DNA from: Escherichia coli | Lineage (GTDB): Bacteria > Pseudomonadota > Gammaproteobacteria > Enterobacterales > Enterobacteriaceae | Length of the DNA: 64,000 bases | NCBI RefSeq assembly: GCF_013122565.1 | Contig: NZ_CP053258.1 | Reading direction: 5' to 3' (one strand) | Shown: piece after piece, positions 17,948 through 43,043 of the stretch | Position numbering within the stretch: the stretch's first letter is position 1 | How the letters are laid out: the number at the start of each line of letters is the position of its first letter | The notes under the pieces: generated by a model | Told to the model about the DNA's origin: nothing | The model's database searches: none | What the model saw: the letters and a program-made list of their open reading frames with translations, nothing else | Translations under genes and position numbers: made by a program

Positions 17948-17998
17948 TTATCCTTTGTGTCCGGCAAAAACATCCCTTCAGCCGGAGCATAGAGATTA

Positions 17999-19045
17999 AT
18001 GACTGCACCATCCCAGGTATTAAAGATCCGCCGCCCAGACGACTGGCACCTTCACCTCCGCGATGGCGACATGTTAAAAACTGTCGTGCCGTATACCAGC
18101 GAAATTTATGGACGGGCTATCGTAATGCCCAATCTGGCTCCGCCCGTGACCACCGTTGAGGCTGCCGTGGCGTATCGCCAGCGTATTCTTGACGCCGTAC
18201 CTGCCGGGCACGATTTCACCCCATTGATGACCTGTTATTTAACAGATTCGCTGGATCCGAATGAGCTGGAGCGCGGATTTAACGAAGGCGTGTTCACCGC
18301 TGCAAAACTTTACCCGGCAAACGCAACCACTAACTCCAGCCACGGCGTGACGTCGATTGACGCCATCATGCCGGTACTTGAGCGCATGGAAAAAATCGGT
18401 ATGCCGCTACTGGTGCATGGTGAAGTGACACATGCAGATATCGACATTTTTGATCGTGAAGCGCGCTTTATAGAAAGCGTGATGGAACCGCTACGCCAGC
18501 GTCTGACTGCGCTGAAAGTCGTTTTTGAGCACATCACCACCAAAGATGCTGCCGACTATGTCCGTGACGGAAATGAACGGCTGGCTGCCACCATCACTCC
18601 GCAGCATCTGATGTTTAACCGCAACCATATGCTGGTTGGTGGCGTGCGTCCGCACCTGTATTGTCTACCCATCCTCAAACGCAATATTCACCAACAGGCA
18701 CTGCGTGAACTGGTCGCCAGCGGTTTTAATCGAGTATTCCTCGGTACGGATTCTGCGCCACATGCACGTCATCGCAAAGAGAGCAGTTGCGGCTGCGCGG
18801 GCTGCTTCAACGCCCCAACCGCGCTGGGCAGTTACGCTACCGTCTTTGAAGAGATGAATGCTCTGCAGCACTTTGAAGCATTCTGTTCTGTAAACGGCCC
18901 GCAGTTCTATGGGTTGCCGGTCAACGACACATTCATCGAACTGGTACGTGAAGAGCAACAGGTTGCTGAAAGCATCGCACTGACTGATGACACCCTGGTG
19001 CCATTCCTCGCCGGGGAAACGGTACGCTGGTCCGTTAAACAATAA
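17999..19045 (+). CDS. pyrC: Dihydroorotase PyrC (348 aa)
   Basis: Translation [52 protein letters not shown]... (HxH metal-binding motif). Confidence 0.96.
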
Positions 19046-19081
19046 AAATCGTAGCTTCCTGTTGTCATTAGGTTATTTTAC

Positions 19082-19097
19082 CTGTATAAATAACCAG
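19082..19097. promoter_or_regulatory. LexA (SOS) box upstream of dinI
   Basis: CTGTATAAATAACCAG (CTG-N10-CAG) about 20 nt upstream of dinI ATG. Confidence 0.85.
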
Positions 19098-19118
19098 TAT
19101 ATTCAACAGGGGGCTATT

Positions 19119-19364
19119 ATGCGAATTGAAGTCACCATAGCGAAAACTTCTCCATTGCCAGCTGGGGCTATTGACGCCCTGGCTGGCGAACTTTCCCGCC
19201 GTATTCAGTATGCGTTTCCTGATAATGAAGGCCACGTATCGGTACGTTACGCCGCAGCGAATAATTTATCGGTTATTGGCGCAACAAAAGAAGATAAACA
19301 GCGCATTAGCGAAATTCTCCAGGAAACGTGGGAAAGCGCCGATGACTGGTTTGTCAGCGAATAA
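19119..19364 (+). CDS. dinI: DNA damage-inducible protein DinI (81 aa)
   Basis: Translation MRIEVTIAKTSPLPAGAIDALAGELSRRIQYAFPDNEGHVSVRYAAANNLSVIGATKEDKQRISEILQETWESADDWFVSE; internal ATG within longer track ORF. Confidence 0.95.
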   Translation: MRIEVTIAKTSPLPAGAIDALAGELSRRIQYAFPDNEGHVSVRYAAANNLSVIGATKEDKQRISEILQETWESADDWFVSE

Positions 19365-19385
19365 TATGCAGTGATTTTTGTTTTT

Positions 19386-19410
19386 GCCGGGTCGCCCCGG
19401 CTTTTTTATT
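19386..19410 (+). terminator. Rho-independent terminator after dinI
   Basis: GCCGGG-TCGC-CCCGGC hairpin followed by TTTTTTATTTT. Confidence 0.8.
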
Positions 19411-19653
19411 TTACTTAAAAATTTTGAGTACAAAATTTCTACACTCCCTCAAAATAATTGCACAATATGCTAAAAAAATATGAATGACATGCTGTTTTAT
19501 TGTTCATATAAATCTTAAAAGCAGAAATTTATCTGTTCCCCCCTTTAAAAATTCGGTGAATACCCTTATTTATTGGTATACTGAAGTTGCTTCAGATAAA
19601 AACGCATTGAACCTCGAATAACGTTGTCTAGTAACACGAATTAGGGGGCCATG

Positions 19654-19908
19654 ATGGAAAAAAATAATGAAGTCATTCAGACTCATCCGCTCGTAGGGTG
19701 GGACATCAGCACCGTTGATAGCTATGATGCGCTGATGTTGCGTTTGCACTACCAGACCCCAAATAAGTCCGAGCAGGAAGGGACTGAAGTTGGTCAGACG
19801 CTCTGGTTAACCACTGATGTTGCCAGACAATTTATTTCGATATTAGAAGCAGGAATCGCCAAAATTGAATCCGGTGATTTCCCGGTAAACGAGTATCGGC
19901 GTCATTAA
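19654..19908 (+). CDS. bssS: Biofilm regulator BssS (YceP), 84 aa
   Basis: Translation MEKNNEVIQTHPLVGWDISTVDSYDALMLRLHYQTPNKSEQEGTEVGQTLWLTTDVARQFISILEAGIAKIESGDFPVNEYRRH; RBS AGGGGG upstream. Confidence 0.9.
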   Translation: MEKNNEVIQTHPLVGWDISTVDSYDALMLRLHYQTPNKSEQEGTEVGQTLWLTTDVARQFISILEAGIAKIESGDFPVNEYRRH

Positions 19909-27094: not shown

Positions 27095-27195
27095 GCCGGA
27101 TGTGGCGTGAACACCTTATCCGACCTACAAAATCTTGCAAAATCAATAAATTGCAGGACCGATGTAGGCCTGATAAGCGTAGCGCATCAGGCAAC
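27095..27195. repeat. BIME: two REP units in inverted orientation between opgH and yceK
   Basis: GCCGGATGTGGCGTGAACACCTTATCCGACCTACA and GATGTAGGCCTGATAAGCGTAGCGCATCAGGCAA. Confidence 0.8.
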
Positions 27196-31385: not shown

Positions 31386-31667
31386 TCAGCACGCTGGCTC
31401 ATGGATTAAGCACCTGATTGCAACCGTTTTCACTTTCCGTGCTTCTCCTAAAGACAGAAGCATCGACTTCGTGTAGGGTTTGCCAGCAAATTTATTTATC
31501 ATCCGTCTTACAGACGCTTCCATTCTGGTTAGTGGTAGCGATGATGCTATGCATAAAAACCTTGAAGCCTGCGCCTGGCGCGGTCAGGTCGGTGTCGCTA
31601 TGGCAACAAGCCTAAAGGCATAACCCGACAGGGATAAGACGAAAAATCCGAGATTAGTTAACCATAT

Positions 31668-32825
31668 ATGAATCCAGTACCCGCGCAACGTGAATATTTC
31701 CTCGACTCCATCCGCGCCTGGCTGATGTTGTTAGGGATCCCTTTTCATATTTCTTTAATCTATTCGAGCCATACATGGCATGTGAATAGCGCCGAACCGT
31801 CATTGTGGCTGACCATTTTTAATGACTTTATCCACTCGTTCCGCATGCAGGTATTTTTCGTTATATCCGGCTACTTTTCCTACATGCTTTTTTTACGCTA
31901 TCCCTTGAAAAAATGGTGGAAAGTACGTGTCGAACGTGTAGGTATCCCGATGTTAACAGCCATCCCCCTACTGACATTGCCGCAATTTATTATGCTGCAA
32001 TACGTCAAAGGGAAAGCGGAAAGTTGGCCTGGGCTGTCATTGTATGACAAATATAATACGTTAGCCTGGGAATTAATATCACACCTGTGGTTTTTACTGG
32101 TGTTAGTGGTCATGACGACGCTGTGCGTATGGATATTTAAACGCATCAGAAATAATTTAGAAAATTCCGATAAAACGAATAAAAAATTCTCGATGGTAAA
32201 ACTATCGGTGATTTTTTTGTGCCTCGGCATCGGTTATGCGGTAATAAGAAGAACGATTTTTATTGTGTATCCGCCCATTCTGAGTAATGGCATGTTCAAT
32301 TTTATTGTCATGCAAACGCTATTTTATTTACCGTTCTTTATCCTCGGCGCACTGGCTTTCATTTTCCCTCATCTTAAAGCCTTGTTTACCACGCCGTCTC
32401 GTGGCTGTACCCTCGCTGCAGCATTGGCGTTTGTCGCTTATTTACTCAACCAGCGCTATGGCAGTGGCGATGCCTGGATGTACGAAACCGAGTCGGTGAT
32501 CACCATGGTCCTCGGTCTGTGGATGGTGAATGTGGTCTTCTCCTTTGGCCACCGTTTGCTTAACTTCCAGTCAGCGCGGGTGACTTACTTTGTTAACGCA
32601 TCGCTGTTTATCTATCTGGTTCACCACCCGTTAACGCTGTTTTTCGGCGCGTACATTACACCGCACATCACCTCCAACTGGCTTGGTTTTCTCTGTGGCC
32701 TGATATTCGTAGTAGGGATTGCGATAATTCTGTATGAAATTCATTTACGCATCCCGTTACTGAAGTTTTTGTTCTCTGGGAAACCGGTTGTTAAGCGTGA
32801 GAACGATAAAGCACCAGCCCGTTAA
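31668..32825 (+). CDS. opgC: OPG succinyltransferase OpgC (MdoC), membrane acyltransferase-3 family, 385 aa
   Basis: Translation [70 protein letters not shown]...; divergent from opgGH. Confidence 0.9.
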
Positions 32826-36658: not shown

Positions 36659-37410
36659 GTTGTCACCCTGGACCTGGTCGTACATTTAAGAAATTAAATC
36701 ATTTCAACTTGGTTGTTAACGCAACCTGTATTTTGTTAACGCTGCGTTACGATGGAAAGTATGTCTGCGGAAATATTTTTAATAACTCACCCGCGCGTTG
36801 TATTTTTCTTTTTTTGTTCATACCAAAGTATTAAAAGCCACGTAAATACGCTGTTATCTACGCAAAAAATATTTTGTTTTCTTTTAAATCTCCGTTTCCG
36901 CTATCAAAAATCACCAGACAGTCATTCTTCTTGCCCGTCGCTGATTGCTGCGATATGTCTTGCGCACAAGCCGTGACAAACCTCGTCTTTTTGCAGTAAA
37001 AAATTGTCCACGGAGGTGTGGAGAAAAAACAACAACTTTTTACATGACGAAAGGACTACACCGAAATATTTTTTATATGCATTATTAGTAAGTTATCACC
37101 ATTTGTATGATTTTTTAAAATTGTGCAATAAAAACCAAATGTACAACTTTTCTATCATTTCTAAACTTAATAAAACCTTAAGGTTAACATTTTAATATAA
37201 CGAGTTACATTTAGTTACATGTTTAACACTTGATTTAAGATTTGTAATGGCTAGATTGAAATCAGATGTAATCCATTAGTTTTATATTTTACCCATTTAG
37301 GGCTGATTTATTACTACACACAGCAGTGCAACATCTGTCAGTACTTCTGGTGCTTCTATTTTAGAGGCAGCTGTCAGGTGTGCGATCAATAAAAAAAGCG
37401 GGGTTTCATC
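36659..37410. promoter_or_regulatory. csgBAC / csgDEFG divergent intergenic regulatory region (about 750 bp, AT-rich)
   Basis: Long AT-rich gap between divergent csgB and csgD start codons; by established knowledge of the csg locus this carries the sigmaS-dependent csgD and csgB promoters and multiple regulator sites; individual sites not resolved by eye. Confidence 0.7.
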
Positions 37411-42955: not shown

Positions 42956-43043
42956 GGTGAGGTGTCCGAGTGGCTGAAGGAGCACGCCTGGAAAGTGTGT
43001 ATACGGCAACGTATCGGGGGTTCGAATCCCCCCCTCACCGCCA
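42956..43043 (+). tRNA. serX: tRNA-Ser (anticodon GGA), serX/serW type
   Basis: 88-nt sequence GGTGAGGTGTCCGAGTGGCTGAAGGAGCACGCCTGGAAAGTGTGTATACGGCAACGTATCGGGGGTTCGAATCCCCCCCTCACCGCCA with long variable arm, anticodon loop CUGGAAA, 3' CCA; divergent from ghrA as in K-12. Confidence 0.95.

Follow-up and report, generated by a model that had tools for sequence, protein, structure and literature searches.

LexA operators follow the consensus TACTG(TA)5CAGTA, with a spacing rule for the CTG and CAG triplets (PMC6590174, PMC5999292), and dinI of Escherichia coli is counted among the genes with a 'known SOS box' (PMC6590174). LexA was shown to bind the dinI operator by electrophoretic mobility shift assay (EMSA) (PMC5999292). 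In Klebsiella pneumoniae, LexA ChIP covers dinI, whose box overlaps the mapped transcription start site (TSS), and LexA occupancy is lost after mitomycin C (PMC10907235). As for induction, a UV study names dinI among the most prominently induced genes (PMC3009722), and a ciprofloxacin study gives a log2 fold change of up to 3.70 for dinI, with the DinI protein signal also rising (PMC11002266). DinI has been described bound in the groove of the RecA filament (PMC9926225), and its effects on RecA filaments, stabilising as well as inhibitory, depend on concentration (PMC6590174).

Two further systems serve for comparison. In Salmonella, 19 bp separate the dinI box, with a heterology index (HI) of 4.0, from the ATG, and nalidixic acid induces the gene 22.8-fold; together with the dinI genes of the Gifsy prophages, the HI range is 3.9-5.3 and induction by damage is strong (PMC8072944). 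The second system is the transposable element IS10/Tn10, in which read-through transcripts sequester the translation signals and thereby protect the element from external promoters, as PMC13181058 reports, citing Davis, Simons and Kleckner 1985.

Here we analysed 64,000 nt of E. coli DNA (the window), which carries a dinI locus. The site in front of dinI is almost certainly the one LexA operator that this chromosomal E. coli gene possesses. This work covered its sequence, its score on a LexA matrix, how far it is conserved, its overlap with the promoter and the identity of the gene; LexA binding, induction by damage and the action of DinI on RecA were taken from the literature. This SOS operator is an already known, ordinary feature and not a new one.

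The dinI locus and its operator

A preliminary description of this DNA had placed a LexA box at 19082-19097, about 20 nt upstream of dinI, and had proposed SOS control of an 81-aa dinI lying inside a longer ORF. We read the sequence from 18700 to 19700. The 16-mer CTGTATAAATAACCAG occupies exactly this interval, with CTG at 19082-19084 and CAG at 19095-19097. The dinI ATG at 19119 lies 21 nt past the end of the 16-mer and 19 nt past the end of the full 20-mer ACCTGTATAAATAACCAGTA, so that the distance had also been given correctly. The 20-mer is an imperfect palindrome of 20 bp in which CTG and CAG stand exactly 10 bp apart. The published dinI 25-mer TTACCTGTATAAATAACCAGTATAT (PMC3009722, Table 4) is window 19078-19102, letter for letter. 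The proposed SOS control agrees with this identity, with the retention of the box across Enterobacteriaceae, and with the published EMSA and SOS induction. The 81-aa dinI is indeed internal, being the C-terminal part, from codon 45, of a 125-aa ORF (18987-19364). This longer ORF was rejected as a gene: its upstream ATG falls within the last part of pyrC, and the annotated and conserved start is 19119, with a proper Shine-Dalgarno (SD) sequence. RefSeq likewise annotates the 81-aa form. Coordinates of all features are collected in Table 1.

Table 1. Features of the dinI region, in window coordinates
Feature	Position	Strand	Basis or remark
pyrC (dihydroorotase), co-directional upstream gene	17999-19045	+	ORF list, annotation, Pfam
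Artefactual 5' part of the listed ORF 18987-19364, outside the gene	18987-19118	+	Overlaps the pyrC end in another frame
Predicted anti-SD arm GTAGCTTCCTGTTG (RNA GUAGCUUCCUGUUG)	19051-19064	+	Upstream of the probable start; overlaps the first three -35 bases
TTGTCA, predicted -35 hexamer for dinI	19062-19067	+	Own sigma-70 scan
LexA operator (SOS box), 20-mer ACCTGTATAAATAACCAGTA	19080-19099	+	CTG-N10-CAG core at 19082-19097
TATAAA, predicted -10 hexamer for dinI, within the left half-site of the operator	19085-19090	+	Own sigma-70 scan; columns invariant or nearly so
Predicted partner arm CAACAGGGGGCTAT (RNA CAACAGGGGGCUAU), covering the dinI SD	19104-19117	+	RNA fold
dinI SD AGGGGG, 5 nt before the ATG	19108-19113	+	Sequence; G-run conserved in orthologues
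dinI coding sequence, 81 aa and stop (TAA 19362-19364)	19119-19364	+	Pfam, PDB, K-12 identity, RefSeq
Intrinsic terminator of dinI, GCCGGGTCGCCCCGGC then TTTTTTATTT	19386-19411	+	Terminator scan; stem 19386-19401 and T-run

The encoded protein belongs to the DinI family (Pfam PF06183; E 2.1e-29, 102.1 bits against a cut-off of 24.2) and matches PDB entries 1GHH and 7YWA over residues 1-81, its full length. Compared with E. coli K-12 (W3110), the 25-mer, the whole pyrC-dinI intergenic region, the DinI protein and the neighbouring genes are the same, and operator and promoter are without differences. The strain differs by three changes within dinI, all synonymous, and otherwise downstream of the dinI stop codon. 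The window thus carries an intact textbook dinI operator identical to that of K-12, which serves as a positive control for motif calling.

The gene order is grxB-yceB-pyrC-dinI-bssS-solA, the proteins flanking DinI being dihydroorotase and BssS. An intrinsic terminator follows dinI, and the unit is therefore read as monocistronic. Of 5426 complete E. coli genomes, 5425 have a 501-bp region annotated as pyrC and dinI, with pyrC-dinI-bssS-solA as the gene order of the locus. A stretch of 80 bp that includes the box was at least 99% identical in 3737 records, and 100% identical in K-12-derived and O157:H7 strains among the matches listed.

Several other elements of the window should be mentioned. 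Rfam models scoring above their gathering score were the PyrC leader (RF02372) at 17949-17998, just before pyrC, and two sRNAs, ES036/CssrF at 27129-27171 and ES056 at 37264-37355. The region 42956-64000 holds a tRNA-Ser(GGA) gene (42956-43043) and, after it, a CP4-type island with a CbtA/YeeU toxin-antitoxin pair, an antirestriction gene, DUF932, IS66 remnants, a chaperone-usher fimbrial operon and a ydeO-like regulator. Positions 50001-64000 were covered to at least 80% in only 3 of the 5426 complete E. coli genomes, and the closest was PapRG-06-5 (baboon) at 99.6%.

Conservation of the box and its overlap with the dinI promoter

For comparison, one genome per species was taken, which gave 80 chromosomal dinI loci ranging from Escherichia to Kosakonia, Cedecea and Buttiauxella. 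All 80 have the box, and its CTG and CAG are invariant. At 76 loci, the best site within 150 nt upstream scored 21-28 bits and ended 18-21 nt (mostly 19) before the ATG; at the remaining four the box lies farther upstream, with leader insertions between box and SD. Loci that had appeared boxless (Trabulsiella, two Buttiauxella and three P2-type phages) all proved to have a box farther upstream in a wider scan. A site of at least 20 bits was present within 250 nt upstream in 87 of 87 loci of the first set (80 chromosomal and 7 phage), and none occurred elsewhere in the 240,914 flanking bases of these 87 loci. Column by column, conservation in 75 distinct orthologous sequences averaged 0.93 over the box, again with invariant CTG and CAG. 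In the same sequences, TGTTG of the -35 region and the SD were conserved and the 12-nt spacer was variable.

In Trabulsiella (L033:1419-1500 and L034), about 40 nt were inserted after the original G-run, so that box and ATG are 60-62 nt apart; the start codon has acquired a new SD (AAGGA), and the old G-run is kept beside the box. In Buttiauxella gaviniae and B. brennerae (L062:1356-1486 and L080), a 131-nt repeat separates the LexA box from the SD and the box lies about 145 nt from the ATG. The repeat looks ERIC-like, and each E. coli genome contains it 2-11 times with an identity of about 80-84%. Buttiauxella sp. B2 (L053) is without this insertion.

The boxes of the different genera vary at position 2 of the 20-mer. 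This position (window 19081) is C in E. coli, giving ACCTG against TACTG in the consensus. C at the equivalent position (ACCTG or GCCTG) was seen in Escherichia, in many Enterobacter loci and in a few others, for example Lelliottia and Cedecea; in the majority of the remaining genera the base is A (AACTG or TACTG). The C costs about 3-4 bits compared with the Citrobacter and Salmonella boxes and, judged by sequence, possibly makes a somewhat weaker operator. The chromosomal Salmonella box AACTGTATATATATACAGTA is nearer to the consensus, with 28.1 bits against 22.3 bits for E. coli on the same matrix, and in S. enterica arizonae (L024) box and ATG are as far apart as in E. coli.

Phage-borne dinI paralogues mostly have boxes as well (162 phage records found). 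Like the chromosomal gene, the DinI-like genes of temperate phages have a high-scoring box 13-20 nt before the DinI-family gene or before a small preceding ORF. Unlike it, several lambdoid phage dinI genes have two tandem boxes; these are 28 bp apart, start to start, in the lambdoid and Stx prophage copies L084:340-387 and L094:340-387, and a second palindrome is also visible in L092. The box of L093 (YYZ-2008) is weak (16.6 bits), and no recognisable box was found within 120 nt in the Stx2a phage copy L096. The P2-type phages differ in another way, their box apparently governing a two-gene unit at about 205-250 nt from the DinI-like start. In these P2/186-type phages, the DinI-like gene is without a box of its own and a near-consensus box of 23-28 bits lies farther upstream (L087:175-194, L095:176-195, L088:153-172 and L086:141-160). 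In L087 and L095, this box stands 19-20 nt upstream of a 60-aa ORF that directly precedes the DinI-like gene; the L095 copy of this ORF carries the annotation 'UV induction of prophage'. For L086 and L088, 41-45 nt separate the box from the tentative start. By sequence, the arrangement looks like a two-gene SOS unit, and it would correspond to the SOS operon of 186/P2-type phages linked to coliphage 186 Tum.

Our sigma-70 scan of 19000-19118 yielded a sole candidate of at least 9/12, TTGTCA-17 nt-TATAAA, which scored 10/12 and has its -10 hexamer within the LexA box. A first scan, which demanded T at the last -10 position, had returned no promoter on the + strand at dinI, because TATAAA ends in A. 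From the candidate promoter, transcription would start at about 19095-19099 (around 19097), that is, in the right half-site. Such a start within the E. coli box fits the overlap of the K. pneumoniae dinI box with a mapped TSS (PMC10907235). The LexA box therefore overlaps the promoter through the -10 hexamer, and probably through the start site as well. Since the operator covers the -10 and the probable start, LexA bound to 19080-19099 should sterically exclude RNA polymerase.

Taken together with the published work, this suggests the following course. In an undamaged cell, a LexA dimer binds the palindrome and should block the dinI promoter. On DNA damage, activated RecA filaments cause LexA to cleave itself, and the operator is vacated. 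A short monocistronic mRNA would then extend from about 19097 to the terminator, and 81-aa DinI is translated from AGGGGG-N5-ATG, after which it binds in the RecA filament groove and modulates the filaments. No data contradicting a LexA operator were found in this analysis.

The overlap raises an alternative, namely that the block is conserved solely as the dinI promoter, with its TATAAA and start site, and not for LexA binding. The -10 hexamer inside the box means that promoter constraint does add to the conservation of 20-mer positions 6-11. However, conservation reaches symmetrically to the right half-site CAGTA (19095-19099), which a -10 hexamer does not need, and the invariant bases are exactly the CTG and CAG of the dyad. 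In addition, phage dinI paralogues with different promoters also have high-scoring boxes, and both LexA binding (PMC5999292) and LexA ChIP (PMC10907235) have been published. We consider a purely promoter-driven conservation very improbable.

Matrix score of the operator against background

The pattern CTG-N10-CAG, quoted for the box in the preliminary description, is present, but it is not evidence by itself. The window contains 34 matches to bare CTG-N10-CAG, compared with 13.0 +/- 3.2 in shuffled sequences, an excess that is probably due to CTG and CAG codon usage. The stricter CTGT-N9-CAG occurs 10 times against 5.8 expected. Because these bare counts do not discriminate, a leave-one-out matrix was used instead. 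A log-odds matrix and the Berg-von Hippel HI were derived from 17 LexA boxes, that is, the 18 of PMC3009722 Table 4 minus dinI.

With this matrix, the dinI site scored 21.97 bits with an HI of 4.95. The check proposed at the outset, scoring against a LexA matrix, thus gave a high value (22 bits, HI about 5). In leave-one-out scoring of the 18 published boxes, dinI ranked 6th and surpassed recA, lexA, sulA and uvrB. For the E. coli dinI box itself, the published HI is about 6.2. Its HI here falls inside the range of proven sites, which PMC11002266 puts at HI < 15.

The dinI box alone reached 15 bits in the 64-kb window, where no other LexA site of at least that score was found. The runner-up, at 31660-31679, had 13.45 bits, 8.5 bits under the dinI site; it was rejected as a second LexA box, as it is without CTG and scores at the level of random sequence. 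The best site per random 64-kb sequence scored 13.3 +/- 1.9 with a maximum of 20.6 (200 first-order Markov sequences), and the dinI site exceeds all of these. For E. coli DNA, CTG-N10-CAG alone is consequently unusable as a criterion, with 34 matches in 64 kb and 1 of them real. That the dinI match arose by chance in an AT-rich intergenic region, without LexA function, is next to impossible: the abundance of the bare motif above the shuffles leaves the pattern alone with little information, but with the full matrix the site far outscores both the rest of the window and the random sequences, and its letters are those of an operator that has been studied by experiment. Moreover, 76 of 80 species keep an unchanged CTG and CAG at a constant spacing from the ATG, and 241 kb contained no site of at least 20 bits elsewhere.

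A predicted hairpin around the dinI promoter

Folding of 19030-19125 as RNA predicted a 14-bp stem between 19051-19064 and 19104-19117 (dG -26.7 kcal/mol, z -4.65). The promoter and the LexA operator lie in the loop of this hairpin; its left arm is upstream of the probable start and its right arm lies over the SD. Among the orthologues, the left arm has the consensus GCCCCCUGUUG, and the consensus GCCCCCTGTTG of the left-arm region is conserved though it is outside the -35 hexamer.

Because the left arm is upstream of the probable start and no terminator was predicted before dinI, both arms would be present only in transcripts reading through from pyrC. We therefore weighed an additional layer that is compatible with the LexA operator: in pyrC read-through RNA, the hairpin would hide the dinI ribosome-binding site, so that only LexA-controlled transcripts would be translated, in the manner of IS10. 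We put this forward tentatively and lean somewhat against it. The likeness to IS10/Tn10 lies in an inverted repeat with one arm ahead of the native start site and its second arm on the ribosome-binding site, such that only foreign read-through RNA would fold; the dinI locus shows this arrangement in prediction, with a presumed start site. Unlike the IS10 transposase gene, dinI is a chromosomal SOS gene, and its hairpin is purely predicted. The predicted hairpin is possibly the sole new item at this locus.

Several results speak for such a role. The stem is long and stable by the values given above, and the terminator scan predicted no intrinsic terminator in 19045-19118, between the pyrC stop and dinI. 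The C-rich GCCCCCTG just 5' of the -35 is conserved, which neither the -35 nor an A/T-rich UP element accounts for. The minimum free energy fold paired the SD with a segment upstream of the box in 75 of 75 distinct orthologous sequences (mean z -3.56; 70 of 75 below -2), although these sequences are related and the counts are not independent. By comparison, z was -0.73 +/- 1.33 for 33 control genes in the window; no control gene reached -3.5, and long-range SD pairing was seen in 6 of the 33. In the alignment, 72.4% of the cells were paired, compared with 34-59% for slid partners, and the covariation score was above all 500 shuffles, again for related sequences. One lineage (L052), whose SD is GGAGG, has the matching GCCUCU. 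The calculated cost of opening the SD and AUG was 12.7-20.3 kcal/mol in read-through contexts versus 7.5 kcal/mol in promoter-initiated transcripts.

Other results speak against it. The long-range helix was absent from the RNAalifold consensus. In the nine core pairs, changes are confined to one side, and the number of pairs with a change on both sides was not above that in shuffles. Even in the short transcript the SD would be only partly open (P unpaired 0.25), and the reading supposes both that transcription runs on from pyrC into dinI and that the dinI start lies where predicted. The phage paralogues are inconsistent, with duplex z values from +0.4 to -2.7. An anti-SD hairpin as a general trait of the DinI family was rejected on account of this inconsistency, the low permutation P being inflated by relatedness. 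As the main alternative, the hairpin could act on the pyrC mRNA instead, stabilising its 3' end or serving as an atypical terminator.

A literature search on pyrC-dinI read-through or a hairpin at the dinI SD found no description; early pyrC sequence papers may note dyad symmetry. If the hairpin does hide the ribosome-binding site in read-through RNA, a chromosomal stress gene would have a translational safeguard that keeps upstream read-through from bypassing its repressor. The hairpin would then guard an SOS modulator against leaky expression, on a principle documented so far mainly for insertion sequences, and would explain the tight SOS-dependence of DinI despite the lack of a terminator between pyrC and dinI.

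Within the loop, the fold contains an inner hairpin formed by an 8-bp inverted repeat, GGTTATTT at 19071-19078 and AAATAACC at 19088-19095, which is off-register from the LexA dyad. Since its left arm falls in the variable spacer, this repeat may be specific to Escherichia or due to chance.
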